From a virus (taxonomy: Duplodnaviria; Caudoviricetes), in the IMG/VR virus record IMGVR_UViG_3300042010_000129, positions 64,001 through 128,000 of that record: a DNA stretch of 64,000 nt; one strand, given 5' to 3'. This document shows, in pieces, positions 89-63,496 of this stretch; position 1 is the stretch's first letter, and each line of letters starts with the position of its first letter. A model generated the notes under the pieces. It saw only the letters and a list, made by a program, of their open reading frames with translations, did not search any database and was not told the origin of the DNA. The translations under genes were made by a program, and so were the position numbers.

Positions 89-391
89 ATGGCTAAATCC
101 CATTGGTTCCACGCAAAAGCTTCGAACGCAAAAAGAAAATACCTCAAGAAACATCCGGGTTCGATTTACGCGGGTGCCCGTACCGGTGCGGCCAATGGGA
201 ATGGCGCCGCTGCATACCGCGCACAAGTTGACCACATGCGTCAGGAAATCGCACAGATTAAAAAGCAGTTGCAAGCTCTGCACGAATCGGACTCTGCACA
301 CGACGGCCTGCTGCGCCGTCTGATGGCCCTGCAACGCAAGCTCACGATGTTCAAACGGGCCGCAATGGCAACCGCACGTTCGAGGAAATAA
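89..391 (+). CDS. Small basic coiled-coil protein (100 aa), possible internal head/DNA-binding protein
   Basis: K/R-rich ORF with a heptad-like C-terminal half; packed tightly against the next gene. Confidence 0.7.
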   Translation: MAKSHWFHAKASNAKRKYLKKHPGSIYAGARTGAANGNGAAAYRAQVDHMRQEIAQIKKQLQALHESDSAHDGLLRRLMALQRKLTMFKRAAMATARSRK

Positions 392-392
392 A

Positions 393-782
393 ATGGAAGT
401 GATGATCGCCCTCGGGGCCTCAATTAAAGTCAGTGACCGGGGCGAACATTTCGGTAAAGAATTTCGTTCCGAACACGGTTACATCTGCGTGAAAACTGGC
501 GGGCAATTCTCGCCGTGCAAACACAGCGTAACCGATTACGTGGTCAACGAAGAATCTCGCGGACAGGGCCACGGTGATTTTCTGCTGAAGGGAATTGTCC
601 GCACGTACAAATCGGATATCGGCGGTCAGGTCAGCAGCATTGCCAGCCTGCACGTGTTCTACAAAAACGGATTCCGACCAGCACTCAAACTCGATGCAAC
701 TTTGGAAGAGACGAAAAAGCTTTTCAAAGATGAATGGGGTAGCCTGCTGATGGTTTATAAACCGGCGAAGGATTTCACTTAA
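393..782 (+). CDS. GNAT-family acetyltransferase-like protein with N-terminal tag MEVMIALGAS
   Basis: Acetyl-CoA motif A-like VVNEESRGQGHGDFLL and motif B-like ASLHVFYKNGF. Confidence 0.7.
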   Translation: MEVMIALGASIKVSDRGEHFGKEFRSEHGYICVKTGGQFSPCKHSVTDYVVNEESRGQGHGDFLLKGIVRTYKSDIGGQVSSIASLHVFYKNGFRPALKLDATLEETKKLFKDEWGSLLMVYKPAKDFT

Positions 783-1705
783 TGGAAATGGAAATTGCGC
801 TGGCGGGTAGTTCTGTTCTGTATCATTTGATCCCGATGGAATACGCGATCCCAGCCCTGCAAAACAACCGCTTCAAACTCGCTGCAACCAACGAAGGCGT
901 TGAATCCGAATTCGGAAAGCAGCAATACTTCTTGAGCCTTGCGCGCTCGAAGCACAGCCACTATTTCAAAAGCGAAATCGGTTTTACGCACGTGGTGTTC
1001 GTCCTCGACGGCCAGAAGATGGGCCAGAATTACCAGATTAAACCTGTTGATTACTGGGCCAGCCAGAAGCATGTGACCTCCGATGAAATGGAAGACCGTT
1101 TGTTTGCCGACAAGCTGTATATCCCTTGCGTAAAATACGTGAAGGAAATTCATTTCATGGCCGAGCGCGAAGCCAAATACAAATCGAATGACAGCCTGAC
1201 ACTGGCGCTGTTGGCGAAACGTAACGGCATTGAGCTTTTCCAGTACGAAAAGTTTGAAGACTTCGTGAATCTGGACAAGCGCAAGAAAATCAAGCTGGAA
1301 GTCAGCGACAAGAAGAAACCGAAATTCGGTGCGAAGAAAGGTTTTGACCCCGGCCCGGATGGCGACCTGCAAGCTTGGTACGTGGCGTCTCAAATCGTCT
1401 TCAAACCAAACGAAGATTTCGGCACGCAATTTGTCAAAGGGGCCAAGCACAAAGAAGAACGCAAGGCCCGCGACCGTATACGTCGCCAGATTAACGACAT
1501 GAAGCGTTATATCGACGTAGAAAAACGCGCCGTCTACGATTTCAACAAGCTGCTTGGGTACGCGAAAGGCGGCGAAGATTTGGAATTCCTCGAAAAGATC
1601 AAACGCGTAAAACGAAAACTGCGCGTGGATACCAAAGGCTTTCTTGACTACGTGCGCAAGCGCTGGATGACTCAAGAAGAAAGAGAAATGCACGGCTTGG
1701 AGTAA
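782..1705 (+). CDS. Putative ADP-ribosyltransferase-fold protein with N-terminal tag MEMEIALAGS
   Basis: LYH near the N-terminus, FLSLARS (STS-like) and DEMEDR (ExE-like) occur in ART order and spacing; K-rich helical C-terminus; TAATG coupling to the upstream gene. Confidence 0.5.
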   Translation: MEMEIALAGSSVLYHLIPMEYAIPALQNNRFKLAATNEGVESEFGKQQYFLSLARSKHSHYFKSEIGFTHVVFVLDGQKMGQNYQIKPVDYWASQKHVTSDEMEDRLFADKLYIPCVKYVKEIHFMAEREAKYKSNDSLTLALLAKRNGIELFQYEKFEDFVNLDKRKKIKLEVSDKKKPKFGAKKGFDPGPDGDLQAWYVASQIVFKPNEDFGTQFVKGAKHKEERKARDRIRRQINDMKRYIDVEKRAVYDFNKLLGYAKGGEDLEFLEKIKRVKRKLRVDTKGFLDYVRKRWMTQEEREMHGLE

Positions 1706-1709
1706 CCGC

Positions 1710-3518
1710 ATGGAAATGCAATTGGCTGTGGCCGCAGTACGACTTAGTGTTGCGCGCCCATTCGTAAAGGGTTGGGATAAAAACGGAGTCGGCGTGAAAG
1801 CCATCCGTAAATTCCTGCCTAAAAATAGCAAAGGTTATCGGCTGTATATTCCGATCAAGAAAACGAAGGCCGACCGCGTTGTGGTGCCGAGTGCGGTATT
1901 CCACGCAATCCACGAAGCCGGGTATTCCATCGAAGATTACATCAACGGAATCGCGGTGGCCCCGGACGGTAAACGCCGCGTGCGTATCGGCAAACTTCTG
2001 CGTGATGCTGAAGCCATTAAAGAATTCGCAAACGATCCACAACGTTCGGCACACAAAGACGAATACACCTGCGTGATTTCTGCGCATCCTTACGATGTGA
2101 TCGGAATGTCTACCGGGCGCCGTTGGGATAAGACAACCTGCATGCGCCTAGCAACGCCTGAGAACAAAGGTGACGCGGGCGAAAAGGCTGTTGAGTTCAT
2201 GCCGGGCACCGTTGCGGAAGGCACGTTGGTTGCCTACGTGATCAGCCCCAAAGATAAAAACATCAACAAGCCGCATGCGCGCCTGTTGATCAAACCGTTC
2301 AAGAAAGCTGACGATCAATCTTTCGTTTATTTCAAAGTCGAAACCGCTGTTTACGGCCAACCGATTCCCGGTTTTAAACGCACGGTCGAGAACTGGTTGA
2401 AGCGCGTGAACAAAGGCGCACAGGCCGGTATTTATAAGCTGCATAAAAGCGTTCACATTGACCGCTCTGATGATTTGCGCACAGCGATTATCGCGGACTA
2501 CGAAAAGGTTGATGATAAAGACCAGTTTATCCTGAAAAATATGTACCCGGCTGGCGGGCCGAAAGTCTGGCTGAACGCCGACAAACGTTGGTTGCCCGAC
2601 ATGCTGCGCGTCACGACCGATACTCACAATCTGGAAGAAATTGTGAACGCTGCACGTGGGGCCGGAATTCATGCAAATAAAATCGGTGCGATTTACGATC
2701 AGGTAATTCCAGCCGACGACATGCGCAATTACGACCTGTCGGAATTCCTGTTGGGCACGCATGCGCAGGAATTGTTTGAAACCAGTAAACACCTTGGTGC
2801 CGCCGCCCGCGAACAATTCGAATGGGCTGACGACGAAGAAACCAACGCCGAACACGCGATGAAATACGGCCTTTACGATTCGCGCTGGCTGTCGTCCGTG
2901 ACCGATATCAGCCCGGATCTTTTGCGTCAATTGGCACAGAAATTCATTTACGGTGCGTACCGCTGGACGCCTGAATTGCAGGTATCGAAACTGCGTGGCG
3001 CCAAGCACATTCGGCTGTATCTGGCGTTTGTTGCAAACGGTTTGCTGGCCGACACCGGTTGGCTGACGCAGCGCGTAGACATTCGCAACCTGAAAGACTA
3101 CGTTAAGAAATCTAAAATCCCGGCCAGCTGGGATGAAGAAATTGTCGATCTGATTAAAACGATTAATTGGAACGCGAATTTCCGCAACTCCACGTCGAAC
3201 AGCATCAACGGTGAAGCCTGCGTACTCAACGTGGCGCCGGACTGGGCAGCGGTGTTCCCTGAATGGATTCCCGAATCGCGTCGGTTCCTTAGCGAAAAGG
3301 CGGTTGGTGTTCTGGCTAAAATGGCCCGGCACAATAAAACGATTCGCGACCAACTGGTTTACTGGGCATACAGCCAAAACCGCGATGCGCTTGCCAACGG
3401 TTATACGTGGTTTGCAGTTCGTAAAAACGTGCGTGATTTTATCCATCACGTGGCCGCGCAGAAAGGCGACGACGAAGCGATTACTTTCGCCCAACGCATT
3501 ATGTCTCTACAGAGTTAA
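1710..3518 (+). CDS. Large paralogue A (602 aa): tag MEMQLAVAA, conserved ~270 aa N-domain, unique C-domain
   Basis: Shares HPYDVIGMSTGRxWD..CMRL, EGTLVAYV, ARLLIKPF and VYGxPxPGF with the next two genes; SD GGAG upstream. Confidence 0.85.
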   Translation: MEMQLAVAAVRLSVARPFVKGWDKNGVGVKAIRKFLPKNSKGYRLYIPIKKTKADRVVVPSAVFHAIHEAGYSIEDYINGIAVAPDGKRRVRIGKLLRDAEAIKEFANDPQRSAHKDEYTCVISAHPYDVIGMSTGRRWDKTTCMRLATPENKGDAGEKAVEFMPGTVAEGTLVAYVISPKDKNINKPHARLLIKPFKKADDQSFVYFKVETAVYGQPIPGFKRTVENWLKRVNKGAQAGIYKLHKSVHIDRSDDLRTAIIADYEKVDDKDQFILKNMYPAGGPKVWLNADKRWLPDMLRVTTDTHNLEEIVNAARGAGIHANKIGAIYDQVIPADDMRNYDLSEFLLGTHAQELFETSKHLGAAAREQFEWADDEETNAEHAMKYGLYDSRWLSSVTDISPDLLRQLAQKFIYGAYRWTPELQVSKLRGAKHIRLYLAFVANGLLADTGWLTQRVDIRNLKDYVKKSKIPASWDEEIVDLIKTINWNANFRNSTSNSINGEACVLNVAPDWAAVFPEWIPESRRFLSEKAVGVLAKMARHNKTIRDQLVYWAYSQNRDALANGYTWFAVRKNVRDFIHHVAAQKGDDEAITFAQRIMSLQS

Positions 3519-3522
3519 ATAA

Positions 3523-6282
3523 ATGAAATTAGAAATGGCATTGGCCGCCGTGTCCATGAAAACGGCACTGAAATATCGCCGCAATTGGGATCGCAATGCA
3601 CCGATTGTGAAGCTGTTGCAATCCATGATGCCGTTCGGGCCGGGCAAGAAAGGTTATCGCCTGTATTTCGATATCGGCGTGAATCATAAAGCGCACTTCA
3701 CGGTTCCACCGGCTGTGCGTTCGGCTCTGCAAAAAGCAGGCTACGCGCCAACCGATTATCTGGCGAAGAAATGCGTCAAGATCGGTGACAAAGAACAGAA
3801 GAACGTTTTCAATATCGGCAAAGTAATTGCGAAAGATCCACACGCAAAAGCGGCGTTCGATAATGATCCACAATTGCAGAACACCAAACAGGGTGCTTTG
3901 CAGGTCGTGATCAGCTGTCACCCGTATGACGTAATCGGTATGAGTACCGGGCGTGCATGGGACAAAATGTCGTGCATGCGCCTTGCTGACGGCGAACACC
4001 GTCTCGATCCCGGTTCGAACGCGCATTACGTGCGCAATGACGTTTCGGAAGGCACGTTGGTTGCGTATGTCGTCGGCGCCGATGATTCGAATATCCAGCA
4101 CCCAAAAGCACGCTGCTTGCTGAAGCCTTTCTACAACGAAAAAGGCGAAGTGCTTTATCGTCGCGAAACCCGCATTTACGGCAATCCGGTTCCCGGTTTC
4201 GATATTATTCTTTCGCGTTTTCTGCGTAAGATTAATGCGCACCTTCCGGAAGGCACGTTCAAGATGGGCCGTGGCCTGTATGACGATGGCATGGGGCAGG
4301 AGCATTATCACAAAGCATCGCACGACGATAACCTGTCGATTGAAGACGTAACGACCGACACAGCGCACGCCGTGCAATTTGTGCAGCAGCAAATCAAGGC
4401 CATGCCTGACCACGATATGCGCGACGAACATATCGACAATATCATCACCTATCTGAACAACGACGAAATTCAAAGTCGTTTGAAAGAAACGCAAATTGAT
4501 GAAATCGTCGAAACCCTAAAAGGCGTGAAGGCCGCAGTTAACGGCATTCATTTGCTGGCCTACAAGGATCAGCCTTTGGGTACGGTGCTGGCTGAAGTCG
4601 GGCGCCGCATTGGCTCATTCGATAAAACGAAAGGTTTCACGAAAGAAATTCTGGCCGGTCTGGATGACGACCGCGTTCACAACCTTTCGCACGGTGGCGG
4701 CAATCCGGTAATCGAAGCGCTTAGCCGCGTGGAAGAATTGAGCGATTATGAACTGCGTGATAACTCGCGCATTTTCAAAATGATCCTCACTGGCAAAACT
4801 CCAGTACCTTCGAAAGAGGAATTGGAAACCTTGCCAAATTGCGCACGCATTTTGAATACCGCTGCGCACGCTGCCCGCCACATGACGATGCTCAATGATG
4901 ATTCGATGCAGAAAGGTGCATATGCAATTATCGACCTCGGAATTGACGTGGAAAATGCAATCTGGCTCGGCCCGGATGCAGCAGACATGATGTACGCAAC
5001 TGGCGGCATTAATCTTTTCCTCGGTTACGTGATGGATAACGTCGGCAAACTGAGTTCGGATGCGTTGTGGGCCGCTGACCCTGCCGTAACTGCAATGGCG
5101 CTCGCGAATCGCCGGGTGTTCCGCTTCCTCGATAAACAGGAAGATCGCCAAATTGCATTCATGATGGATCATGTGAAAATGGAACAGGTTAAATACCTGA
5201 TCCTGAATCCACGGCAGGAACAACTTTTCAAAGACAACAAAGCGGCGCTCATTAAATACCTCGACGATAACGAGGAAGTTATTCCGTCAATCCTCGGTAA
5301 TGGATGGGAACCGCAGTACGTGAAAAACTTGGCGAATCTCCATTTGCCAGCCGTAATGCATTTGACCGAAAGCGATGGCATTTTCACTTCGGGACTTGCC
5401 GATACGATGCAGGGAATTATCCCGGCGTTGATGGCATGGGACGGCCCGAAACTGGAACCGCTGACCACCGATGTGGAAAACGCATTGCAGATTATCGTGC
5501 AGGCCGGAAACCTTCTGGAAAAGCCGTTGCATCTGGAACGGAAAATCGACGAAGATCAATTCGAAATTCGCGATATCACGGACGTATCGGACAACTACGT
5601 GCAACGGGCCAGTGCCAATCGGTATACCCGTATTAAATCGTTCCCTGAATTGCTGTATAAGCTGGATTTCAACGGCGAACGTGCGGACATTACACATTCG
5701 ACCGAACTCATGGAACATTTGGGCGGCGATGCATTCGGTTGGGTTCCTACCGATAAGCTTCCGGGCGAAATGCGTAGCATGCTGAAACTGGTGCGTGAAA
5801 TGGATTTGGGGCCTGCAATTGATGCGCTCTACAACCTGATCAACGCAACGCGTTTGCTTCCATTGGAAGAGGTGGATGCGGGCGTTGAACGACGCATGAA
5901 TGACCGCGAAATTTTCATGCCCGACGATGACGTATTGGACGAAGACGCCTACGAAGAGGCAGACGCTGCGTACAATGAAATTCGTGAATCAATTGAAAAC
6001 GAAATCATTGAGAACAATTACAAAACCATTCGCCTCAATCGTAAGCTGTTGGAAGCGTTGGAAAAAATCAAAGACTTCGTGGGCTATGACGAAGACGTTG
6101 ACTATTTCGAGGACGACGCTCCACTCGCCACATTCGCCACCGATTTGACGAACGTTTCCGAAGACGATTACGCCGACAATGAAGACCGCGTGCGCGATTT
6201 GCGGGCTGAGTTGAAAAGTGAATGTGAAAGCCGTCCGAACGAACAGCAGGAAATGGAAGACGACGCTGGTTTCAGCGAATAA
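3523..6282 (+). CDS. Large paralogue B (919 aa): tag MKLEMALAA, conserved N-domain, acidic helical C-terminus
   Basis: Same N-domain motifs as paralogues A and C; D/E-rich last ~150 aa. Confidence 0.85.
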   Translation: MKLEMALAAVSMKTALKYRRNWDRNAPIVKLLQSMMPFGPGKKGYRLYFDIGVNHKAHFTVPPAVRSALQKAGYAPTDYLAKKCVKIGDKEQKNVFNIGKVIAKDPHAKAAFDNDPQLQNTKQGALQVVISCHPYDVIGMSTGRAWDKMSCMRLADGEHRLDPGSNAHYVRNDVSEGTLVAYVVGADDSNIQHPKARCLLKPFYNEKGEVLYRRETRIYGNPVPGFDIILSRFLRKINAHLPEGTFKMGRGLYDDGMGQEHYHKASHDDNLSIEDVTTDTAHAVQFVQQQIKAMPDHDMRDEHIDNIITYLNNDEIQSRLKETQIDEIVETLKGVKAAVNGIHLLAYKDQPLGTVLAEVGRRIGSFDKTKGFTKEILAGLDDDRVHNLSHGGGNPVIEALSRVEELSDYELRDNSRIFKMILTGKTPVPSKEELETLPNCARILNTAAHAARHMTMLNDDSMQKGAYAIIDLGIDVENAIWLGPDAADMMYATGGINLFLGYVMDNVGKLSSDALWAADPAVTAMALANRRVFRFLDKQEDRQIAFMMDHVKMEQVKYLILNPRQEQLFKDNKAALIKYLDDNEEVIPSILGNGWEPQYVKNLANLHLPAVMHLTESDGIFTSGLADTMQGIIPALMAWDGPKLEPLTTDVENALQIIVQAGNLLEKPLHLERKIDEDQFEIRDITDVSDNYVQRASANRYTRIKSFPELLYKLDFNGERADITHSTELMEHLGGDAFGWVPTDKLPGEMRSMLKLVREMDLGPAIDALYNLINATRLLPLEEVDAGVERRMNDREIFMPDDDVLDEDAYEEADAAYNEIRESIENEIIENNYKTIRLNRKLLEALEKIKDFVGYDEDVDYFEDDAPLATFATDLTNVSEDDYADNEDRVRDLRAELKSECESRPNEQQEMEDDAGFSE

Positions 6283-6307
6283 AAACAGTAATTTTATAGT
6301 ATGTTAC

Positions 6308-6343
6308 GCCGGGAAGGTTTAGGCTGACCCGGCTTTCTTTTTT
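6308..6343 (+). terminator. Intrinsic terminator-like hairpin after paralogue B
   Basis: GCCGGG...CCCGGC stem followed by TTTCTTTTTT. Confidence 0.55.
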
Positions 6344-6357
6344 ATGGATCAAAAAAC

Positions 6358-9021
6358 ATGCTAATTGACTTGGCTTTCCTCGGTACAGCAGCGGTTTCAA
6401 TGCGTAGTGCTTTGAAATACCGCCGCAATTGGGATAAGAACGGGCCTACCGTTCAATTGCTGCGCAAATTCATGCCGCGTGGTTCCAAAGGGTTTCGCGT
6501 TTATGTTCCCATTGGACACGCACAAGTTACGAACAACGTGGTTATTCCGTTGCCAGTTCGCTTGGCCGTTCGCAAAGCCGGTTTCCGTATCACTGATTAC
6601 CGGGCAAAGCGTTGCGTTAAGCTGAACGACAAAGATCAGAAAAACGTATTCAATATCGGTAAGGTTATTTCGAAAGACGCCGTGGCAAAAGCCGCATTCG
6701 ACAATGACCCGCAATTGCAGAACAGTTCTACCTCCGAATTCACAATGGTTATTTCCTGTCACCCATACGACATTATCGGTATGTCTACTGGCCGTGATTG
6801 GGATGAAACCAGCTGCATGCGCATGGGAGATTATCGCGACGATTACAGCGATGGTTCCAACGTCAGCTATTTGAAACATGACGTGGCCGAAGGAACGTTG
6901 GTTGTTTATGCCGTGCGTTCTGACGATACGAACATCACGAAACCATTGGGCCGTTGCCTGTTGAAACCTTTCCTGCGTGACGATGGATCGGGTTCTATTT
7001 TCTATCGTCGTGAAACCGATGTTTACGGCAACCCGGTTCCCGGTCTGGCTGAAACGTTGGCGCGCTTCCTGCGCAAATTGAATGCCGGTGTGCCTGCCGG
7101 GATTTATAAGCTCAACGAAAAGCTTTACAACGACGGCCTTGTACCGCGTGCAGAAAACGATGGTTCTTCCGAAGGGCCAACCGTTGACTGGGCAGTGGTT
7201 GACGATCAGCAGAAGCTGAAAGAACGTCCCGAAATGTTTGCAGATTTTGCGAACTATTTGATGAAACGAAACGCGGAAGGAATCACCGATACCAGTGTGG
7301 TGATCAACATCCTGATCGACCACGCAAAAACGATCAACGCACGTTTCGTCAAACCAGCGGCCCGCGTAATTGCCAATCCAAAATTCGCTGCTGCATTCCT
7401 CGAACATGCTGCGTCTTCATTCTCGGATTCCGATTCGGATAGCATCGCTAAATTCATGGCATCGCCTGAGTTCCGCCGTGCGCTGTTGCGTGCTGAACGC
7501 GAAGCAGAAGAGGCGCCGGATACCTACCGTTCGCTTTCGTTCCTGAGTCCGAAAAACGCACATCGTTATTTCGTGCGTGAAGTAAAAGACAATCCGGACA
7601 ATTACAACTATGCGGCAATCAGCTACGCGTGCGGCACCGTTGACCTGTTGCCGGACGATGTTGAATCCATTCCAGAACTACACAAACTCGTATTTAAATA
7701 TGCAGAGTTGATTCGTGAAAGTTCTGTGTTTGGTTCGACTGCTTATCAGGAATCGGCACACCGCGTGCTGTCTACTGTTGAGCCGTACAAAGGCGAATAC
7801 ACGCGTGCAGAAATCGAGGATATTGCCGCGACGTTGGCCGGTGATAAACAGACGTATCGCGCAATCATGGCGTGGTATATCAATTCGAGTACAGCAAACG
7901 ACCGGATGACTTCTGATTTCCTTGCCGATTTCATCAAGGAAGTCCGGTTCCGTTGGGCGCTACGTGATCGTCGGATGCGTAAACGAATTCTCGGCCTGAA
8001 AAACATTTCCGACAATGCCCGCCGCATGATTACAAATGCTATCGTGGAATTGATGGATAACCACGAAGCGCAGGATGCCGCCAGTATCCAACGTGACGTG
8101 ATAGCTCACATTCGCCGCACAGGTTTTGACTGCCTGACTGCCGGTAACTACCTGAGCATTTTGGGTAATGCCCCGCAGTTGTTTAAATCGCTGTGGTATT
8201 CGGAAGGAAATGAAATCGGTGCGGAAATGGTTGAGGCCCTGTTGGCCCGGCCTTCGATGCTGAGTGAACGCATTCGTGAAAATCCTGATGCAGTGCCACA
8301 AAACGATTTCCAACAAAACATTTTCCGCGTGGCAAAAACGTTCGTGGTTGTGATCGGTAATCCGACAGAACAAGACAAGGAAATTGGCGCTGTCGATCCG
8401 GACGTGATGCGGGTTCTGGTTAAATTCGGTGGTGCAATGCGTGCCCTCGGACACTTCATTATCAACCTCGCTGATTATCCGGAATTGTTGAACGGTTCGA
8501 CCTACGTTGGTGCCGGTATTTTCCCACTGGATTTGATCGGTGAAGACAACGGCCACAAGTTCCTTGATTCACTGCGTGAAAAAGATATCGACGCAACGCA
8601 AACCCTGTTGAAAGCTGTAGCGCACGATTTTGCGCAGATGGGTTTGTATGCGGGCGCAGCTACCCGGCAGAATCGCGTTCTCAGTAATGCCGGTGCCCCT
8701 AGCGGTATTGCAACGATGGCGAAATCCCCGCCAGAATTCGCAGTCGCTGCCCAAGGGCGTTACGTTGCGGCAATTCAGAAGGTGAACAGTTTTATCGAAA
8801 ACTTCCCGGTAAGCGGAACTATCGAAGACTGGGAAAAACTTCTGCCTCAAATGGATATGGAACATCTGCCAGCCTTCAACGAAATGGTGGACGGCATGCT
8901 GGATAATCAGCGTCAAGTTCAGCAGACCGCGCAGATGTTTGCGATGTTTGCCCAAGGCGAAACGAAAGAGGCATTGAAGGCCGCACTTCCGCCCGAATGG
9001 CTCACGATAAAGGATTTGTAA
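6358..9021 (+). CDS. Large paralogue C (887 aa): variant tag MLIDLAFLGTAAVS, conserved N-domain, helical C-domain
   Basis: ALKYRRNWD, KNVFNIGKVI, AAFDNDPQLQN, ISCHPYDIIGMSTGRDWD and SCMR are near-identical to paralogue B. Confidence 0.85.
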   Translation: MLIDLAFLGTAAVSMRSALKYRRNWDKNGPTVQLLRKFMPRGSKGFRVYVPIGHAQVTNNVVIPLPVRLAVRKAGFRITDYRAKRCVKLNDKDQKNVFNIGKVISKDAVAKAAFDNDPQLQNSSTSEFTMVISCHPYDIIGMSTGRDWDETSCMRMGDYRDDYSDGSNVSYLKHDVAEGTLVVYAVRSDDTNITKPLGRCLLKPFLRDDGSGSIFYRRETDVYGNPVPGLAETLARFLRKLNAGVPAGIYKLNEKLYNDGLVPRAENDGSSEGPTVDWAVVDDQQKLKERPEMFADFANYLMKRNAEGITDTSVVINILIDHAKTINARFVKPAARVIANPKFAAAFLEHAASSFSDSDSDSIAKFMASPEFRRALLRAEREAEEAPDTYRSLSFLSPKNAHRYFVREVKDNPDNYNYAAISYACGTVDLLPDDVESIPELHKLVFKYAELIRESSVFGSTAYQESAHRVLSTVEPYKGEYTRAEIEDIAATLAGDKQTYRAIMAWYINSSTANDRMTSDFLADFIKEVRFRWALRDRRMRKRILGLKNISDNARRMITNAIVELMDNHEAQDAASIQRDVIAHIRRTGFDCLTAGNYLSILGNAPQLFKSLWYSEGNEIGAEMVEALLARPSMLSERIRENPDAVPQNDFQQNIFRVAKTFVVVIGNPTEQDKEIGAVDPDVMRVLVKFGGAMRALGHFIINLADYPELLNGSTYVGAGIFPLDLIGEDNGHKFLDSLREKDIDATQTLLKAVAHDFAQMGLYAGAATRQNRVLSNAGAPSGIATMAKSPPEFAVAAQGRYVAAIQKVNSFIENFPVSGTIEDWEKLLPQMDMEHLPAFNEMVDGMLDNQRQVQQTAQMFAMFAQGETKEALKAALPPEWLTIKDL

Positions 9022-9447
9022 ATGGAACTGTTTATTGCACTGGCTGCCGAGGATGTGAGCGCACGGATTTCTGATGGTGTGCGTTCCATTCTGAAAAAGT
9101 CGTATAGCTCACTGTTCGCGAATGTGTTTGTGCGGGTTTTCGATATTGAGGATCGGCACAAATCGGATATCAAAATCGTTCGTGAAATGCCGAAAGAATA
9201 TGCACCGGTTTGGGTTACGGTCGAGAACGCGCAGCACGATATTGTGACGTTCGTTTTCGCGGTGCCTACGCTTGCGCCAGTGCTGCACATTCCAAACCCG
9301 CCGCTGGCCTACGTGATCCACAACGAAAAAGTCGAGCAATTCAAACTCGAACCACGCGTTGTGCAGGTTCGCGGGGCTGACTACGCAATCGCTGCTGCTG
9401 TCGCACGCCGGGCACCGAACTTTATTGAAATCGGAGTGAGCAAATAA
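9022..9447 (+). CDS. Hypothetical protein with N-terminal tag MELFIALAA
   Basis: ORF abuts the upstream stop; tag matches its neighbours. Confidence 0.75.
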   Translation: MELFIALAAEDVSARISDGVRSILKKSYSSLFANVFVRVFDIEDRHKSDIKIVREMPKEYAPVWVTVENAQHDIVTFVFAVPTLAPVLHIPNPPLAYVIHNEKVEQFKLEPRVVQVRGADYAIAAAVARRAPNFIEIGVSK

Positions 9448-9671
9448 TGGAAATGATCCTCTCGCTTGCGCGGGCTGGATCGGCGGAACGGTGGGATGCA
9501 ATTCCGGAAGTACGCTTTGACAAAGCAAAGGAAGGGCACTCACTGAATGCGTCCGGCAAACTCTCAAAAAAGCGCCGCAGAAAACGCCTGAAAAGCGGAC
9601 TGATCGACACGCCTCTAAAGGGCGCAGAGAAACGGCAAATGGATATTCAGGACACGGTTAGATGCCCGTGA
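9447..9671 (+). CDS. Small basic protein with N-terminal tag MEMILSLARA
   Basis: TAATG coupling; KKRRRKRLK basic patch. Confidence 0.65.
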   Translation: MEMILSLARAGSAERWDAIPEVRFDKAKEGHSLNASGKLSKKRRRKRLKSGLIDTPLKGAEKRQMDIQDTVRCP

Positions 9672-9678
9672 GGTAGAT

Positions 9679-9942
9679 ATGCCAAAGCTAACAATTAAAG
9701 GTCGTGCCAAACAATCGGATGGCGTGCAAAAACCAGAACACGATGGCGCTCGCATTTTGCGTTGGGAAGACGACGACAAAATGATGCACGATGTACCGAA
9801 GGCTAAAAAAGCTTCGTTGCTGAAAGATCGCACGCGTTCCGGGCAGCAAGGCGCCATGGCTTTCCCGCACGATTACATCGACAAAATGCACGTGTCCAAA
9901 TCGAACTGGTTGGGCCGTCGTGAACGGGGACGCCAACGATGA
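9679..9942 (+). CDS. Small hydrophilic/basic hypothetical protein (87 aa)
   Basis: SD GAGGT upstream; ATGA overlap with the next gene. Confidence 0.7.
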   Translation: MPKLTIKGRAKQSDGVQKPEHDGARILRWEDDDKMMHDVPKAKKASLLKDRTRSGQQGAMAFPHDYIDKMHVSKSNWLGRRERGRQR

Positions 9943-10544
9943 CCGAGATTATCATTGACGGTTTTGCCGCTGATAAACCTACCGGCGATTTGCGGGATGT
10001 TTTCGGTGATCCGTTTAAAGACTTTCGCGAAATGCAGGAAGCGAAAAAACAACGGCAGTGGCAAGAAATCGAAATTGATTTGAATCCAGAAGTGAACCCG
10101 CTGTCACCTGAAGGATTTGATCAGACTTTCCAGCGTGTTGCGGAAGCGTCGAAGCCGCGACCGAAAGGGATTGGTGAAGACTGGTTTCGTTCGTTGCTGC
10201 GCAAAGGCCTTCAGAACGCGCAGGCCAACAAAGAGCGCAACGCACTGGCAACCGCTAGCGATCCAACTGGAAAGCAGCAGCACGGCGACCACAAGGCCGA
10301 TGGCAAGCTCGCACGCACGGCGAAAGTGGCACAAGACCACAAGATGAAAAAGCAGCAAGCACTTCGCGAACTTCAAAAGCGTTTGGCAGCAGTAAACAGC
10401 AAACGCCCGAAAGATCCAACGAAGGTGCAAGCGTGGTCGGATCGTCGCCAAGCGCTGGTGAAAAAGATTGCAGAAAAACGTGAGTCGATGCGTTTCTCTG
10501 ACAAGCGTGTGGCGAGCCTACGGGAGGAACGCCGTGGAAATTGA
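9939..10544 (+). CDS. Hypothetical protein (201 aa) with acidic N-half and basic coiled-coil C-half
   Basis: Codon style and overlap with neighbours; charge segregation visible in the translation. Confidence 0.75.
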   Translation: MTEIIIDGFAADKPTGDLRDVFGDPFKDFREMQEAKKQRQWQEIEIDLNPEVNPLSPEGFDQTFQRVAEASKPRPKGIGEDWFRSLLRKGLQNAQANKERNALATASDPTGKQQHGDHKADGKLARTAKVAQDHKMKKQQALRELQKRLAAVNSKRPKDPTKVQAWSDRRQALVKKIAEKRESMRFSDKRVASLREERRGN

Positions 10545-17232: not shown

Positions 17233-17271
17233 CAATATTTACAGTATTCCATGCACTGGGGGGAACCACAC

Positions 17272-37717: not shown

Positions 37718-40700
37718 ATGGCATTGATTAAACTAAATGGCACGGCGCTCGCCTCTTCACAGTGGAACGATTTCGGAACTATTGCCGCGATCAACGACGG
37801 CAACAACGCAACCGGTTGGTCTGGTGGTGGCGTTAGTTCTACGGCTGACTGGGCCGCGATTCTATTTGCAGGCGCAGAAAAAGCAAAACAAGTAGACGCC
37901 TATTTCTATTCGTGGGGCAACACGATTGTAATCGGCTACGCGAATGCTGCACCGACTTCGAAAGCAAGTTTTACCGTTGTCAGAACAATTGACATTCGCA
38001 CGCAACCGAATGACGACCTCGGTGTGCCGTGGGCGCGGCTTACGAAAAACACGATTATTTTACCGGGCGACGTGGCCGGTACTTATTGGGGCATTTACAC
38101 CAACGACGTAGGGCCGGGTATTCTCGGATTTAACGGCGGTGGCCTCGACCGCGCACGCATCATGGAATTGAATTTCTACAAAGATGACGTGATTGTTCCT
38201 GCTGTTCCATCCGGGCCAAACCCGAAACCTCCATCCGGCTCGCCAGCCATCCCGTTCGCCACAACTCCCGGTGGTTGGACACGGACTGAAATTGCAGTAA
38301 ATGGCAGCGGGACATTCACACCGGGTGTCGATACCACGCTGATTGCAGTTGGTTTGCAGGGCGCTGGTGCTGGTGGTCGAGTCAACGTATCGACAACTGG
38401 TTTAACTACGCCTAATGATTCCACATTAAATGGCGGCGACACTTTTATTTCTAATGCGAGTGGGCAAATTGCGGTGGCCCCCGGTGGCATTGGAAACGCT
38501 ACTCCATTTTTGCCGAAATTTCCGGGTAGCCTCGGAACGCTTTGTGATTGGATTCGCGCAACTGATGGAAGTGGCCGCGCAGGCGGAACAACTGCCATCG
38601 GATCGAACACCAGTGTGGCAGGTGGTGCGTCGTTTATGGGTGGTACGGCGGGCACCGTAATTACGGGCGGTCTTGCTACGCAGAATACAAACGGCCCGGT
38701 TACTGCGACCACGACATTTACAGGAACTGCTGCACTTCCATTTACGCCGACGTATGTAAACGCAAACCGAAATTCCAGTTTGGGCCTTGTGACAACGAAC
38801 GGTTTGGCGCCGTCCGCTGGAAATCCAACAACCGGTTCCATTGAATATTCGTTCAAAGCTTATGCGGGACAGGCGATTACCGTTAACGCCGTTGCGGTTA
38901 CTCCAGCCGGAACCTGTACGCTCACGTATTATTTGAACGGTGTTGCAAAAGGAACACTCGTTGCCTCAACCGGCACCGCATTTCCTGTAGTTTTCACACC
39001 CGAAGTTGATGGCACTCAAACCATTAAATTCGAACTGATTATTACCGCAACTACAGGCTCCCCTCCGATCTGCCGTCTGACGAACATGACGATGACCGGT
39101 GTTGGTCAGGCCGGTGCGCAATCCGGTGCATCCGGTCGTGCTGCTACATTCTTTTTCTTACCTGACGGCCCATTTGATTATACGGTCGGTAAAGGTGGTA
39201 TTGGTCAACCCGGTGGGCAAGCCATAACAGCTTCGCATCACGGTACACGCGGTTCTGGTGGCGGTGGCGGTGGTGGTAACGGCGGCGATGGCGTAATCGT
39301 TATTTACGAATACAAAAGCCCATTACCTCTGGAAAAAGCACCAACGCCACTTTTCCCCACCTACAACCAATCGCTAACCAACGAAGTTCTGGCGGCGTAC
39401 CGCACGAATTATACCGGCACTGCTTCTGTAACAGCTGGTTTGGGCTGGGGATCGCAAACCGCATTTACGCATAAACTTCGACCACGCACGAAATTTGTGT
39501 TGGCAGTGATGACCGGCCCCGGTGGTCAGTGGCGCGGTACTAACGTTGCCTTGGAACCGGATCAATCGCTGCCTACCGTGTTAACGTCTGGTTCGATTGT
39601 AAATACGGCGGAATCTGGTTGGACGGGTAAAACTTATGGTGGCTCTACCGGTAACGGTGGCATCGGCGGCAATATGCTGCCAGCCGATAACGTTTTGTTC
39701 GGTGCAAAAGGTACGACAGGGCAAGGCTCTGGCGCTTCTGATACAAACCAATCTGTAATTGCCGGTAGTTTTGGTAGTGGTGGACAGTCGAGTTATTTGA
39801 ACATTGCTGGCGGCGGTTGTGGCGGTTACGGATTAGTCGCAATTTCTAGCGCGCAATTCAACGAAAGTCGCACACTGGATTTGTTGATCGGTAACACCGG
39901 AACATCGGCAGGCGCTGGTGCAATTTTCATCTACGAATCGGAAACTGATTACGGCCCTTTCATTACGCAATTGGCAGAAGAAATTCTGTTTCAAAGCGGA
40001 ATTGCTGCAACCGCAACAACGCAAACTGCCGAACAGGTTTTGATCAAACAGACTGACGCCGGTTCGAACATTTCGCAAACGTCGGAAAACATTCTGTACA
40101 AGGAATCCGACAGCGCGAACAACCTGCAAGTTTCGCATGCGCATATTGCGTTTGTTGTTGATGCTGACGATCCTGCCACAACGGTTTCGCAGAACTCCGA
40201 AAACATTCTGTACCGCAGCGGCCCTGCCTCGACCAACATTTCGGTTTCGGCTGAACAAGTGTTTATGAAGGTAGGCACTCTACCGTTCCGCATTAGCAAC
40301 ACCGTGGAATTGGTTTTCGCCGCTGAATTACCGTCTGTTTTCTGGTTGAATTTCGGCACCATTCAATACCCGATGATTCGTCAATCCTACGATTCGCAAA
40401 TTGGCCGTGCAACCTCGGTTCAACCGGGCGCGTATATTCAATTGGAATCGCCCCACATGGAAGGCACGACGCTGGTTGTAAACGGCGTGGAAGTGGGATT
40501 GAGTTCGCCAGTTGCGAATAACGATCAGGTATTCATTCGTGGTGGTATTACCAACTTTTTCCAAACGGAAATGAACGTCTATACCTACTACACGAAGAAC
40601 GGGACAATCGCCCGCGAATTGGTAGGTCAATGGAAATTCACACGTGAGCCGCTGACGCCGACAGTTAGTCGCAAATATAGCGTGCCGTACACGAACACCA

Positions 40701-41911
40701 GTTGGATTAAAACGCACAACTATTTCAGTCTGGCAAATATCGTGTCTGTTTGGACGCAGGCCCGGACAATGCTCGGCGCCACACTCGAATCGTTCTATGT
40801 TTCCGGACGTTCCGCGTTGGCAAATTTGACCAGCACGTTTACAAAAGCATTGGCCTCTATGTTCCGTGGCCCGGATGCAATTGCTGATCAGAAAAACCAT
40901 TCCACATTTGAAGGCCCCGACGCAGACTTCACGCAAGCGTTGACCACTGAGTTCCGTGGCCCGGACGCAATCATTACTAAAGCGCAGGAAACAAACACTG
41001 CGTCGAATAATGCAGCGAACGATAATCCTCCGAATGTTCATTTGGAAGATGTGTTTGGTTTTGAGCAATCTTACCTCGGTCTGAAACCTGAAGACTTGTT
41101 CGATTTTGAACAGTATCAGCAGCACATTGACCAATACGAAAACACAAATTTCGAAGGCAATACCGCGAAAGGTTTCGGCCTCACGCTCGCCCTCGAATAC
41201 AAAATGATTGGCCCCGTGGGATCGGCATTGGTTCACAAAGATTACGAATATAACGCGGTTGGTAAATCGTATTCTTCTGAACAAATTTTCACTGCTATTC
41301 CAAACAGCGGCGTCGGCATTCCGTTCTTCATGAGTTTCATTGGAACGATTGCATATTCTGTTTTGGTTGCAACTGATTATACCAAATCGGCACCAGCAGG
41401 AACCGGCACGTGGTTGTTGCCTACGGGCGATGCTTACGTGGGTCGCAATGGCTTCGGTTCGTTTGCATTTACTGGAACGGAAAAAGCAAATGCGCATCCG
41501 GAATTGGCGGATCGTGAAGTTTATGTGCATCACGCGCACGAACAGGGCTATTTCACAACCAGTCCAATTATGCACAAAGTTGGGTTCGGAACGTTTGAGA
41601 AATTCGGCATTATTACGAAGGTTTATTCCAGCGTATTCGGATTGGGCAGCGTTCATGTGAAACAGAACTCGGCAATGGCTCCATTGAGTGCGTACCGACC
41701 AGCCGAGGCAGTGAGTGGGCGCAGTAATCAGGCCAGTTTGTATATGGGCTTCGATTCGTTGCAGGATGTTCAGGATTACACCGAACAGTATTCCGGCGTA
41801 ACGACGTTGCAAATGTATAACGGCTACGTTTACAACCTTGAGGTAGATAAATCGTTTGTTTGCGAAATCTATTTCAACGGGCCTATTTCCGGTCTTATTC
41901 AAGGAGGTTAA
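37718..41911 (+). CDS. Large multidomain tail fibre: discoidin/F5-8-like N-domain, two Gly-rich domains, ~20 aa repeats (1397 aa)
   Basis: ASSQW..AINDGN..TGW..ELNFY discoidin pattern; GSGTFTP..VGLQGAGAGG and GGNGGDGVIVIYEY Gly-rich fibre motifs; SD GGAG before the ATG at 37718. Confidence 0.75.
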   Translation: MALIKLNGTALASSQWNDFGTIAAINDGNNATGWSGGGVSSTADWAAILFAGAEKAKQVDAYFYSWGNTIVIGYANAAPTSKASFTVVRTIDIRTQPNDDLGVPWARLTKNTIILPGDVAGTYWGIYTNDVGPGILGFNGGGLDRARIMELNFYKDDVIVPAVPSGPNPKPPSGSPAIPFATTPGGWTRTEIAVNGSGTFTPGVDTTLIAVGLQGAGAGGRVNVSTTGLTTPNDSTLNGGDTFISNASGQIAVAPGGIGNATPFLPKFPGSLGTLCDWIRATDGSGRAGGTTAIGSNTSVAGGASFMGGTAGTVITGGLATQNTNGPVTATTTFTGTAALPFTPTYVNANRNSSLGLVTTNGLAPSAGNPTTGSIEYSFKAYAGQAITVNAVAVTPAGTCTLTYYLNGVAKGTLVASTGTAFPVVFTPEVDGTQTIKFELIITATTGSPPICRLTNMTMTGVGQAGAQSGASGRAATFFFLPDGPFDYTVGKGGIGQPGGQAITASHHGTRGSGGGGGGGNGGDGVIVIYEYKSPLPLEKAPTPLFPTYNQSLTNEVLAAYRTNYTGTASVTAGLGWGSQTAFTHKLRPRTKFVLAVMTGPGGQWRGTNVALEPDQSLPTVLTSGSIVNTAESGWTGKTYGGSTGNGGIGGNMLPADNVLFGAKGTTGQGSGASDTNQSVIAGSFGSGGQSSYLNIAGGGCGGYGLVAISSAQFNESRTLDLLIGNTGTSAGAGAIFIYESETDYGPFITQLAEEILFQSGIAATATTQTAEQVLIKQTDAGSNISQTSENILYKESDSANNLQVSHAHIAFVVDADDPATTVSQNSENILYRSGPASTNISVSAEQVFMKVGTLPFRISNTVELVFAAELPSVFWLNFGTIQYPMIRQSYDSQIGRATSVQPGAYIQLESPHMEGTTLVVNGVEVGLSSPVANNDQVFIRGGITNFFQTEMNVYTYYTKNGTIARELVGQWKFTREPLTPTVSRKYSVPYTNTSWIKTHNYFSLANIVSVWTQARTMLGATLESFYVSGRSALANLTSTFTKALASMFRGPDAIADQKNHSTFEGPDADFTQALTTEFRGPDAIITKAQETNTASNNAANDNPPNVHLEDVFGFEQSYLGLKPEDLFDFEQYQQHIDQYENTNFEGNTAKGFGLTLALEYKMIGPVGSALVHKDYEYNAVGKSYSSEQIFTAIPNSGVGIPFFMSFIGTIAYSVLVATDYTKSAPAGTGTWLLPTGDAYVGRNGFGSFAFTGTEKANAHPELADREVYVHHAHEQGYFTTSPIMHKVGFGTFEKFGIITKVYSSVFGLGSVHVKQNSAMAPLSAYRPAEAVSGRSNQASLYMGFDSLQDVQDYTEQYSGVTTLQMYNGYVYNLEVDKSFVCEIYFNGPISGLIQGG
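39960..40325 (+). repeat. Seven ~19-20 aa repeats, consensus [TS]-Q-x-[AS]-E-[QN]-[VI]-L-x-[KR]
   Basis: ITQLAEEILFQ, TTQTAEQVLIK, ISQTSENILYK, VSHAHIAFVV, VSQNSENILYR, ISVSAEQVFMK, ISNTVELVFA. Confidence 0.7.
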
Positions 41912-47693: not shown

Positions 47694-47706
47694 CTAAGGA
47701 GTGGCT

Positions 47707-49815
47707 ATGAAGTTACTGAATACCATCGTGTTGCCAAATCAATTGGCGGCACAGGGAATTAACCACGTTGCCATTTACCAAAATGGTGCAGTTTCTACCT
47801 ACCTGAAAGACAAAGTAAATTCTAAACTCACGGCTACCGGGCCGACGACCGCTGTGCCAAATGCGCGGGCCGTCCGAATCAGTCCGAGCGGTGAATATAT
47901 CGGTGTGCAAAGCGACACCAAAACCGTGCGCATTCGCAACGGTGTGCAGGAATCTTTCGACAATAACGTGGGCGCTTTCGGCATTGCTGACACGGGCCAC
48001 ATTGTGATGATCGCGCTGGCGTCCGGCGCCGTGCAGGTTATTGATTCGTCGGTAACAAACCTGACTGTAGCCGTAACCGACGACGACCGCGTGGTGTGTG
48101 CGAAAGGCCGCTACATGGTTTACAACCGCGCACGAACCATCACCGCTCAATATTCTGATTTGGTGTTGACGCCTGTAGCCTCCGCAAAAGAAATCGTTTA
48201 CGTGACGCATGATCACAACGGAAAATTCGTTGTGTTTTATTCGGACAATACTTTCAGCTACGACGGCGCAGCGGCTAAAACGTTCAACGCCCCGGCCCAA
48301 GGTTTCCGTGACGTGGGCGACCAGATTCTTTGTACCGATATGAAAAATGATTGGGCGCTAAGTCATTCCAAACCGCTGGCATTTCCTGAACGGGTTCGCC
48401 CGTTTAAATGGACGGCACCCGCAGACCAGAATACCGATTTCGCCAACCTGCTTTTGATGGCGCCGGGTTCCGGTTTTGCTTCAGCCAATTTCGATTTGAA
48501 GAATGGTTTGGCCGTTACAGCTGCTGCCGTAACTTCGGTTACGGATTCACCCTACGGCGCTACCGGGAAGAGTTTAAATTTCAACGGCACCACGTCTGCG
48601 CTGGTTACAAACGACAGTGCGAATATTCAATTGGCAGGTAACGATTTCACAATCGAATTGTTCGTGAAAATCTCTTCGATTGCTGCTGTTGGTGCATCTG
48701 CTATTTTCAACAAAGGTGCAACCGCAAACGTTGATGCATCGGCCTACGCCTTGCTTGCAAACGCTTCGAAAACTTTCACATTTTCCGCATCGTTTAACGG
48801 TTCTGCATATCAGGTCGGCACCACGAATTGGGGATCGTTTGAATTTGACGTGTGGACGCACATTGCAATCACACGGAAAGGAAACGTGTGGCGTTGTTTC
48901 CAGAATGGAAAATTGCAGGCGAAATTTACTGTCGCTGGTTCTCTGTTTGCACACGCCGGGCGTGGTATTCAGCTTGGGCATTTGCGCTCAACAAACTTCG
49001 CAACCGGCCCGCTGGCCTACCAACTGGGCGGCAACATTAACGGATTCCAGATTCTGAATTATGCGAAATATACGCATGATTTTTATCCGGAAACTCTTTC
49101 TACCACACCGGCCCTGCCATCGAATGGTGTACCGGGCGCAGGTTCCCCGATTGTTGGTGATGCAGCATTGGGTTATTACGGCACCGTGACCAGCACCGCG
49201 CTTATTTCTGGCGATGCACTGGCGTCCGCTGTTGGCCTTACTGCTGGCGTTTCGGTCAACACTGATACCGCGTGGTTGAAATTCGCATCGAACGGGAAAA
49301 CTTTGTTCGTTCCGAAATTGCCAATCCGTTCGTTTATCAGCTGGCCCCAACTTTATGCAGCCGGTTTGGTTTACGGTTTGGATTCTGGTATCGGGCTGTC
49401 GCCGTTGCCAACCGGTGCAACTGTGCAGCAAACCAAACGCGTAACAATTAACGGAAACGTTTACAAAGTTCGTTTGCTTACGGGCGGCAATTCCGATCCG
49501 TACCCAAGCGGCGAATTCAACGTTAGCAACCCGCTGAATGCGCTCGAATCCGAATACACGAAATTGGTTCAGCGTTGCTGGGCACAAGATCCAAACGGTG
49601 CGCCATGGGATAACTTCACCATTGAAGAACTGGGTTCCAATAACGGAACGCATTTAACGTGGTGCCAAGAATCGCACCCATACAGCGGCCCGGCCCGTGT
49701 GCATCGGGGCATTTCTGGCCCGGCTGGTTTCGGTGCAACAGACGGCAATTATACAGACGTTAGTGGCTATACATTCATGTGGCGTCCGGTATTGGAATTG
49801 ATTGGGCCAGCCTAA
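47707..49815 (+). CDS. Fibre protein: beta-repeat N-domain, LamG domain and C-terminal WRPVLEL-type virion module (702 aa)
   Basis: NDFTIELFVK..WTHIAITRKGNVWRCFQNGKL (LamG); AWLKF..GKTLFVPK..ISW..VYG..YKVRLL.GG..WRPVLEL module; SD AAGGAG. Confidence 0.75.
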   Translation: MKLLNTIVLPNQLAAQGINHVAIYQNGAVSTYLKDKVNSKLTATGPTTAVPNARAVRISPSGEYIGVQSDTKTVRIRNGVQESFDNNVGAFGIADTGHIVMIALASGAVQVIDSSVTNLTVAVTDDDRVVCAKGRYMVYNRARTITAQYSDLVLTPVASAKEIVYVTHDHNGKFVVFYSDNTFSYDGAAAKTFNAPAQGFRDVGDQILCTDMKNDWALSHSKPLAFPERVRPFKWTAPADQNTDFANLLLMAPGSGFASANFDLKNGLAVTAAAVTSVTDSPYGATGKSLNFNGTTSALVTNDSANIQLAGNDFTIELFVKISSIAAVGASAIFNKGATANVDASAYALLANASKTFTFSASFNGSAYQVGTTNWGSFEFDVWTHIAITRKGNVWRCFQNGKLQAKFTVAGSLFAHAGRGIQLGHLRSTNFATGPLAYQLGGNINGFQILNYAKYTHDFYPETLSTTPALPSNGVPGAGSPIVGDAALGYYGTVTSTALISGDALASAVGLTAGVSVNTDTAWLKFASNGKTLFVPKLPIRSFISWPQLYAAGLVYGLDSGIGLSPLPTGATVQQTKRVTINGNVYKVRLLTGGNSDPYPSGEFNVSNPLNALESEYTKLVQRCWAQDPNGAPWDNFTIEELGSNNGTHLTWCQESHPYSGPARVHRGISGPAGFGATDGNYTDVSGYTFMWRPVLELIGPA

Positions 49816-61563: not shown

Positions 61564-61631
61564 CTTCCTTTGGTGGGGATGTTGCGGTTGGTACAGCGTT
61601 GGTGTTGCCCTTTATATTTACAGTTTTTAAA

Positions 61632-62908: not shown

Positions 62909-63427
62909 TTACGCGGCTTTCTTCAATTTTGCAGGCTTCAATTTCTTGATCGCCTCTTTGTCTTTCTTCGGCAGCTTCTTGATTTCGTCAAGGAACTTGT
63001 GGTGTTCCCGGCTCAGCTTATCGCGAGCTTCCGGAAGGGTGAACCACTTGCGTTTCCGCATGTGCTTTTCCTGCCAGTCGTCCAGCTGCGTGTGAAACTC
63101 CATCGCGTACATCACGACGTTTTGTTTCATGCCGTCTTTTTCGTATTGGAACTTGCCGATCTTTTTGGTAACGGTGCCGGAAACTCCCGCCTCTTCCCAA
63201 CATTCTTTCGCTGCGTTTTCGCGAGCGTCCAAATGCTTTTCCTGACCGCCTTTGGTAAAGCCCCACCAAGCGCCTTTCTTCAATTTCTTGACCAGACAAA
63301 CTTGACGGATACCATCCTTGTCCCGGTAAGGAATGCAGCCCGATTGTTCACGGACTTTCATTTTCTTTTTCTTTTCCGGTTTTTTGGATTTGGCTACTGC
63401 GATTTGGAGTTCTACCTGCATTTGCAT
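62909..63427 (-). CDS. NUDIX hydrolase (Ap4A/DIPP-like) with N-terminal tag MQ(MQ)VELQIAVAK and basic tails
   Basis: REQSGCIPYR, and Nudix box KGGQEKHLDARENAAKECWEEAGV. Confidence 0.9.
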   Translation of the reverse strand: MQMQVELQIAVAKSKKPEKKKKMKVREQSGCIPYRDKDGIRQVCLVKKLKKGAWWGFTKGGQEKHLDARENAAKECWEEAGVSGTVTKKIGKFQYEKDGMKQNVVMYAMEFHTQLDDWQEKHMRKRKWFTLPEARDKLSREHHKFLDEIKKLPKKDKEAIKKLKPAKLKKAA

Positions 63428-63496
63428 ACAGCCCCTTGTTAGTTAATGGAACGGGGGAATAACCCCATCCCTATTAAATTACTGCTCACTGTATAT

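Follow-up and report, generated by a model that had tools for sequence, protein, structure and literature searches.

An array of leader-bearing genes

The window analysed here is the whole of a 64,000-nucleotide stretch of a caudovirus record (IMGVR_UViG_3300042010_000129, positions 64,001 to 128,000), and by sequence comparison its source is a jumbo phage akin to HRDY3 and Lu11, two phages of Pseudomonas (313 and 280 kb). They fall into a previously defined group of jumbo phages that comprises Lu11, PaBG, NCTB, Dickeya JA and Erwinia Y3-Alexandra (PMC7412058). Seven plus strand genes at positions 393-9671 open, in the list of open reading frames (ORFs), with a short peptide of the pattern M-(E/K)-x-x-Φ-(A/S)-Φ-(A/S), here called the leader. 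A first-pass annotation of the same DNA had proposed that this peptide addresses unrelated proteins to the capsid, and the seven ORFs are present with the N-termini that it gave, at starts 393, 782, 1710, 3523, 6358, 9022 and 9447. The genes, with one untagged neighbour inside the array, are as follows (aa, amino acids; ↓, predicted cut).

393..782, plus strand: weakly GNAT-like 129 aa protein, leader MEVMIALG, which would be cut near residue 8; MEMTLALAAS in the HRDY3 ortholog
782..1705, plus strand: 307 aa protein with a predicted ADP-ribosyltransferase (ART)-fold N-domain (DarT/Tpt1-like, from AlphaFold2 and Foldseek), leader MEMEIALA↓GSSVLYH
1710..3518, plus strand: 602 aa paralog, leader MEMQLAVA↓AVRLSVARPFVKGW; N-domain with a weakly GNAT-like predicted fold
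3523..6282, plus strand: 919 aa paralog (by sequence comparison), leader MKLEMALA↓AVSMKTALKYRRNW
6358..9021, plus strand: 887 aa paralog, longer variant leader MLIDLAFLGTA↓AVSMRSALKYRRNW; Lu11 counterpart MKIALDFMGTAAVSM
9022..9447, plus strand: 141 aa protein (ORF list), leader MELFIALA↓AE
9447..9671, plus strand: basic 74 aa protein, leader MEMILSLA↓RA; HRDY3 MEVLISLAGK, Lu11 MNILLTVAKS
89..391, plus strand: basic 100 aa protein (MAKSHWFHAK..., ORF list), untagged; the same gene at 9697-9999 of a near-identical metagenomic contig (L048) is also without a leader

The array reaches about 5 kb upstream of the window start, as seen in L048, where 15 genes out of a run of 19 bear the leader; in Lu11 and HRDY3 it is found on 13-14 genes each. 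The array lies after the terminase, portal and tail-spike genes and before the baseplate and tail genes. Its genes are packed tightly, with stop and start codons that often overlap and weak Shine-Dalgarno sequences. Among the leader-bearing genes of L048 are one for topoisomerase IB (PF01028) and one for a protein with an ART-PolyVal domain (PF18760, E 1.6e-33), which also aligns within PHROG families of 1,664-2,900 aa.

The bodies behind the leaders had been described as unrelated, which holds for most of them but not for the 602, 919 and 887 aa proteins, since these three are paralogs with a common N-terminal domain of about 260 aa. In the AlphaFold2 (AF2) models of the 307 aa protein (pLDDT 83) and of the paralog N-domain, taken from the 602 aa protein (pLDDT 89), residues 1-7 are below 50 and the first secondary-structure element is at residue 11-12. 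The leader in these models is an add-on outside the predicted fold.

For the 307 aa protein Foldseek returned Tpt1 and DarT with probability 1.0, at borderline E values (3e-3 to 1e-2) and TM scores of 0.28-0.32 by query; Pfam gave no match, and Y14, H15, S52, R55, E102 and E104 are invariant in its family. The 129 aa protein matched Pfam Acetyltransf_1 and Acetyltransf_7 at E ~0.008, under the curated cut-offs, and the 141 aa protein had no Pfam or PHROG match. No significant PDB match was found by Foldseek for the paralog N-domain; an exhaustive structural search with VIA-align gave GNAT acetyltransferases in all 50 of the top 50 rows, with low Z scores (4-6, maximum 6.1). Residues S124, H126, P127, Y128, D129, M133, S134, W139 and C144 are invariant among the copy at 1710-2500 and the paralogs starting at 3523 and 6358. 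The N-domain may be a divergent acyltransferase-like domain, judging from these models, that is widespread in jumbo phages and has variable C-terminal extensions.

KMPT-N/SprT-like proteins are encoded beside the array, and the SprT-like protein is tagged in PaBG while its orthologs here are untagged. A second KMPT-N protein (425-430 aa) with a shortened leader was seen in Lu11 (48427-49704, minus strand, MIISLAAAA) and in HRDY3 (218579, plus strand, MNIALAAS). In the middle of the array L048 also encodes an untagged, collagen-like protein of 96 aa with Gly-x-y repeats (8118-8408, about 1.9 kb upstream of the window start), which has orthologs in HRDY3 and Lu11.

Position, codons and lineage consensus of the leader

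The strict core of the leader, [ILMV][AS][ILVT][AS], occurs at about 0.0015 per residue in the window, Lu11 and HRDY3. At residues 5-8 it was found in 12 of 27 L048 genes and in 10 Lu11 proteins, against 0.56 expected (P = 4e-10); the HRDY3 counts of core position are lower bounds, as the ORF caller favoured long antisense ORFs. A degenerate DNA pattern for the Lu11 leader gave nine matches, all on the plus strand and all in the homologous cluster. Chance resemblance is excluded.

Conservation had been placed at the level of the peptide because the codons differ between copies, and this was borne out. Third-codon positions at identical leader residues agree in 60 of 229 comparisons (0.26), which is the random level, and all four Ala codons are used together with several Leu, Ile and Val codons. 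Selection acts on the leader peptide and not on the nucleic acid. Among the members of the large-paralog family the leader varies in length from 7 to 22 residues with the P4-P1 core kept before the mature domain, and the other long leaders of this family always end in ..Φ-x-x-A↓AV.

The leader consensus shifts jointly within each phage lineage:

Window and HRDY3: MEMxLALA
Lu11: MKIQLAVA
Dickeya JA11: M(Q/E/K)xL(V/I)S(L/I)S, on at least 8 genes
Erwinia Alexandra: MELMVSLSA and variants
PaBG (examples): MELAIAS, MKVSFSL, MHTSLSA (topoisomerase I) and MLIKINLLEAVAAKA

The Dickeya and Erwinia relatives can be summarised as MxxLVSLS. A tagged gene for a 120 aa protein, distal to the array and placed between the head protease and a scaffold-like gene, begins MKVYLAIAAS in Lu11 and MEMMIALAAS in HRDY3, in each case the consensus of its own phage. 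Further leader types were seen within the array of Erwinia phage Alexandra (L035 3817-11925): three proteins start MALIKI(S/N)L(G/A).., which groups with MLIKINLLEAVAAKA of PaBG gp83 (L039), and four paralogs of about 290 aa start MQY(I/L/C).. These variant N-termini of Alexandra and PaBG may be alternative leader classes. In the tail region of the window a 704 aa protein (47701-49815, plus strand) has an internal leader-like HIVMIALASGAV at residue ~100; the match is weak (8.2 with a position-specific scoring matrix, PSSM, trained on Lu11) and may well be due to chance.

Homologs with T4-type leaders and the head module

The most telling result, as judged from sequence alignment, is a swap of leaders between phages. 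The capsid-targeting sequence (CTS) of T4, MKTYQEFIAE, is removed at Glu-Ala bonds by the gp21 prohead protease and suffices to package foreign proteins (PMC8442874, PMC9026906). Two of the cargo families have homologs elsewhere that bear, at the aligned position, a T4-type CTS-like leader ending in [LIM]-x-E. In the large-paralog family these are Atu_ph07 (AUZ95153; MQYTDLIE↓ALKPSEYR), RsoM2USA_132 (MKTFKQFLNTLME↓ALPLS) and the metagenomic P0103, P0106 and P0099, with leaders such as MKKFSTFIDE↓ALKPSQFR, MRAYEFITE↓ALKPSQYR and ..FINE↓AL. Genes neighbouring P0103 begin MKSFRSYVAED, MRTLKGFTQYIRES and MKTFKEIRDE, and the Atu_ph07 paper lists homologs of T4 gp21 and gp23. In the 307 aa family MKKFNEFANELAE↓AV..VYH is found in Vibrio phage K566, a T4-like phage with genes for rIIA, rIIB and endonuclease VII, and ..LIKE↓GASSVLYH in P0146; the Sen-NF homologs are leaderless and start right at the conserved LYH.

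The Glu↓Ala junction aligns over A-V-A↓A-V and A-L-A↓G-S, and the cut is therefore predicted after the second small residue, in agreement with the cleavage after A-[LVT]-A/S suggested at first pass. The tag had also been called independent. This holds only in a qualified sense: it has its own Glu-free motif, but the same cargo families carry a T4-type leader elsewhere, so that the principle was not invented separately and the leader is a swap matched to the lineage.

Two homologs or syntenic counterparts are virion proteins in published work. The 602 aa protein of the window is 41% identical over 254 residues (E 3e-51) to RsoM2USA ORF132 (76.6 kDa), which is among ten abundant bands of purified virions identified using LC-MS/MS (PMC8504454). 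PaBG gp83, a Coomassie-visible virion band (PMC7412058), adjoins topoisomerase I in syntenic position and has the variant leader MLIKINLLEAVA↓AKA.

The head genes of the relatives were located via the PaBG annotation and local tblastn. Their order is protease, then (in Lu11 and HRDY3) the tagged 120 aa protein, followed by the scaffold-like protein (some 640 aa), by a virion protein and by the major capsid protein. The protease matches phrog_18299, head maturation protease (E 5e-113), and is annotated in JA11 as prohead core protein protease. PF03420 (T4 gp21, Peptidase_S77) gave no match in Lu11 and HRDY3, and none in the control genomes either; PF07068 (T4 gp23), PF05065 (HK97 capsid) and PF04586 (S78 protease) gave no matches in Lu11, HRDY3 and a further genome, G001.

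The scaffold-like protein was found between protease and capsid protein in four phages:

HRDY3 (L042), 3230-5205
Lu11, 39347-41251
JA11 (L040), 3216-5174
PaBG, gp82

Wrongly annotated as 'ATPase' or '60S ribosomal-like L2-A', it shows Cys-x-x-Cys pairs, a run of 60-150 Asp/Glu residues, a helical C-terminus and many leader-like motifs, features that make it look like a scaffold or core protein. The HRDY3 gene is in two ORFs, split at the end of the acidic run, which could be a real split or a sequencing frameshift.

In Lu11 the 5-mer [ILVM][AS][ILVT][AS][SAG] occurs nine times in the 1,511 residues of four head-module proteins and 28 times in 84,346 residues elsewhere, an 18-fold enrichment (P = 3e-9). 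Compared with composition-preserving shuffles there are seven in the scaffold-like protein (0.42 expected) and two in the capsid protein (0.18 expected). Lu11 has three copies of VATASS, one in its capsid protein (residues 68-73) and two in its scaffold-like protein. At the aligned site the capsid proteins read VATA↓SS in Lu11, IATA↓SS in HRDY3, VSES↓H in JA11, STSAN in Alexandra and EAVA↓A in PaBG, and the pentapeptide EAVAA of the PaBG capsid protein is found in the gp83 leader as well. A cut at this site would fall after residue 71 in Lu11 (mature start SSREE...) and after residue 78 in PaBG (AAEARRE...), and would give a computed ratio of mature to full mass of 0.79-0.82. The predicted site matches the published mass loss of about 20% for the PaBG capsid protein. 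Whether Ala or Ser is found at P1 and P3 tracks the leader of the lineage, both in the capsid protein and at three aligned scaffold sites.

Outside the array, one minus strand gene of the window had also been claimed to carry the tag:

62909..63427, minus strand: NUDIX hydrolase (phrog_10313, E 1.5e-52 from residue 21) with a conserved N-terminal extension MQMQVELQIAVAKS

The gene and its N-terminus are present, but the status of the extension as a leader is uncertain. Its pattern is M-x-M-Q-V-E-L-Q-I-A-V-A-K-S, with MEMQVELQIAVAKS in HRDY3 and ..MMVSLQASPA in Lu11, and by its sequence it may be a diverged leader. The motif CTGTAAAT, the core of a 'putative middle/late promoter' annotated in Lu11, has four copies in the window, against 1.3 expected (7 of 100 shuffles reached four):

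63495-63502, minus strand: motif match, 68 nt upstream of the NUDIX start
61616-61623, minus strand: motif match
17237-17244, minus strand: motif match, at the head of the minus strand block at 11.4-17.2 kb
38716-38723, minus strand: motif match

The tagged array and its 10 kb of upstream sequence contain no copy.

Proposed capsid targeting and its alternatives

The leader is best read, with a probability of roughly three in four, as a capsid-targeting propeptide that the head maturation protease would remove by a cut after Φ-A-Φ-A. All of the comparative tests run (fold, leader swap, virion proteins of relatives and the motif in head proteins) support this proposal of the first-pass annotation at the level of sequence. 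Late in infection the leader would bring the tagged proteins into the assembling prohead core, where the protease would cut after the second small residue, at a site with a hydrophobic P4, Ala, Ser or Gly at P3, Leu, Val, Thr or Ile at P2 and Ala or Ser at P1, followed by Ala, Gly or Ser. This protease would also cut at copies of the motif in the scaffold-like protein and in the major capsid protein, in the latter some 70 residues from the start. Once mature, the enzymes would remain in the head and presumably be ejected with the DNA; we infer packaging, cleavage and ejection of these particular proteins. The proposed cargo comprises the topoisomerase IB, the ART-PolyVal protein, the DarT/Tpt1-like ART-fold protein, GNAT-like proteins, the three large paralogs and several small proteins.

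A wider proposal is that the capsid address has been re-coded in the Lu11/PaBG group. The protease would read small residues (Φ-A-x-A↓S/A, assemblin-like) in place of Glu, any protein bearing the leader would be loaded and delivered, and cargo families would cross between lineages by a swap of leaders. Some 15 enzymes could then be recognised as an injected set by the leader alone, a virion-borne topoisomerase IB and two ART-fold proteins among them. This proposal is put at only slightly better than even odds.

Several points weigh against capsid targeting. To our knowledge a packaged topoisomerase IB is without precedent among phages. The protease family is named by its PHROG label only, with no Pfam S77 or S78 match and no sequence relative in the PDB, and the Ala/Ser covariation amounts to two or three independent lineages. 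The best internal PSSM match, KEMLIAVATD in the scaffold-like protein, was rejected as a site; it is part of a repeated fold element and shows no covariation with the leader, so that internal matches are not all sites. A PSSM trained on one lineage recovers the leaders of other lineages weakly, because leader residues 2-4 are lineage-specific, and the core regular expression was used in place of cross-lineage PSSMs. The PaBG gel study named 14 bands, and the leader-bearing topoisomerase I, gp86 and gp89 were not among them. No published mass spectrometry or N-terminal sequencing was found for the tagged proteins of this phage, Lu11 or HRDY3, the Dickeya JA paper contains no proteomics, virion proteins identified by mass spectrometry are not marked in the Erwinia Y3 record, and a literature search found no paper on HRDY3 or on the leader.

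The resemblance of the motif to a cleavage site, its recurrence in head proteins and the KMPT-N/SprT-like proteins encoded beside the array would also fit a leader that is a processing signal only, removed in the cytoplasm by the head protease or another phage protease (e.g. of SprT/KMPT type) to activate or time the enzymes, with no packaging involved. RsoM2USA ORF132 and PaBG gp83 are, however, virion proteins in other phages, the same families carry T4-type capsid-targeting leaders elsewhere, and a peptide of eight residues that is disordered and outside the fold in the models would be unlikely to inhibit such different enzymes; processing without packaging is therefore unlikely. Rather less probable still is that the leader is recognised by a modifying enzyme or by an assembly or localisation factor unrelated to the capsid (a maturase like those of ribosomally synthesised and post-translationally modified peptides, N-terminal acylation or a replication compartment). 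The GNAT-like genes within the array speak for such a role, but no radical-SAM or other candidate maturase was found among the Pfam matches of the 20-kb locus or in the annotations of the syntenic loci, the core recurs at the capsid-protein maturation site and in the scaffold-like protein, and homologs in other phages have a leader of T4 CTS type in this position.

A secretion, membrane or lipoprotein signal is very improbable. The core is small and hydrophobic and its A-x-A recalls the signal peptidase I rule, but the leader has about eight residues, no h-region of 7-15 residues and no lipobox Cys, and position 2 is mostly acidic; at first pass the peptide had been called too short and too acidic for a Sec/Tat signal. 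The modelled folded domain moreover starts from about residue 11, and the cargo consists of enzymes that act on nucleic acid or use NAD (topoisomerase IB, ARTs). The tight packing of the genes, their overlapping stop and start codons and the weak Shine-Dalgarno sequences would suit a nucleic-acid element such as a translation enhancer, promoter or recombination joint. The third-codon identity already refutes such an element, and the leader varies between 7 and 22 residues with the core intact; the statistics of core position and of the DNA pattern exclude chance, and the probability left for a nucleic-acid element or chance together is negligible.

In comparison with known systems, the proposed capsid targeting by the leader is closest in kind to the T4 CTS of IPI-III and of the Alt propeptide, processed by gp21. 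In both a short N-terminal leader (8-20 aa) is found on unrelated, non-essential-looking proteins, the motif at the end of the leader also occurs at maturation sites of head proteins (predicted from sequence here), and an ADP-ribosyltransferase is in the cargo (Alt in T4, proposed cargo here). The cut in T4 is after [LI]-x-E, whereas here the motif is Φ-(A/S)-x-(A/S) with no Glu at the predicted P1 of the window leaders; the Lu11 leaders (consensus MKIQLAVA) have no acidic residue. Unlike T4, the phages here are jumbo phages of the Lu11/PaBG/Dickeya/Erwinia group; their capsid protein, about 365 aa long, is HK97-like, their protease has no Pfam S77 match, and about 15 proteins including a topoisomerase IB are in one block, compared with three or four proteins in T4.

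In the phiKZ-like giant phages (phiKZ, 201phi2-1 and SPN3US) head and ejection propeptides are cut at S/A/G-x-E. These are likewise jumbo phages with many head-internal proteins, one prohead protease and a short consensus, but their propeptides are long, dissimilar and end in Glu, in contrast to the uniform leader of eight residues with small P1 and P3 found here. The maturation sites of herpesvirus assemblin are (V/L/I)-x-A↓S. The predicted V-A-T-A↓S-S sites of the capsid and scaffold-like proteins here would follow the same P3/P1/P1' logic, and phage prohead proteases are related to assemblin according to a review. The polyvalent proteins that phages inject (Iyer et al. 2017) have the same repertoire of ART-PolyVal, GNAT and metallopeptidase-associated KMPT-N domains; they differ in that here separate small proteins each have a leader in place of one giant fusion. 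What appears new, on sequence evidence, is that a CTS-like system would use a cleavage motif of small residues and no Glu, in a phage group for which no earlier report was found; the principle itself was already known.

If capsid targeting is the function of the leader, it would provide a second, orthogonal short tag with which foreign proteins could be loaded into the heads of phages in laboratory strains. The hosts of these jumbo phages are Pseudomonas, Dickeya and Erwinia, plant-associated and soil bacteria, and about 70% of the phage annotations are 'hypothetical'. A sequence rule would then list the proteins that these phages carry into the cell and would point to the enzymes of host take-over and anti-defence that act in the first minute. 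Capsid-targeting leaders and protease specificity would also be seen to co-evolve and to be exchangeable between lineages on the same cargo families.

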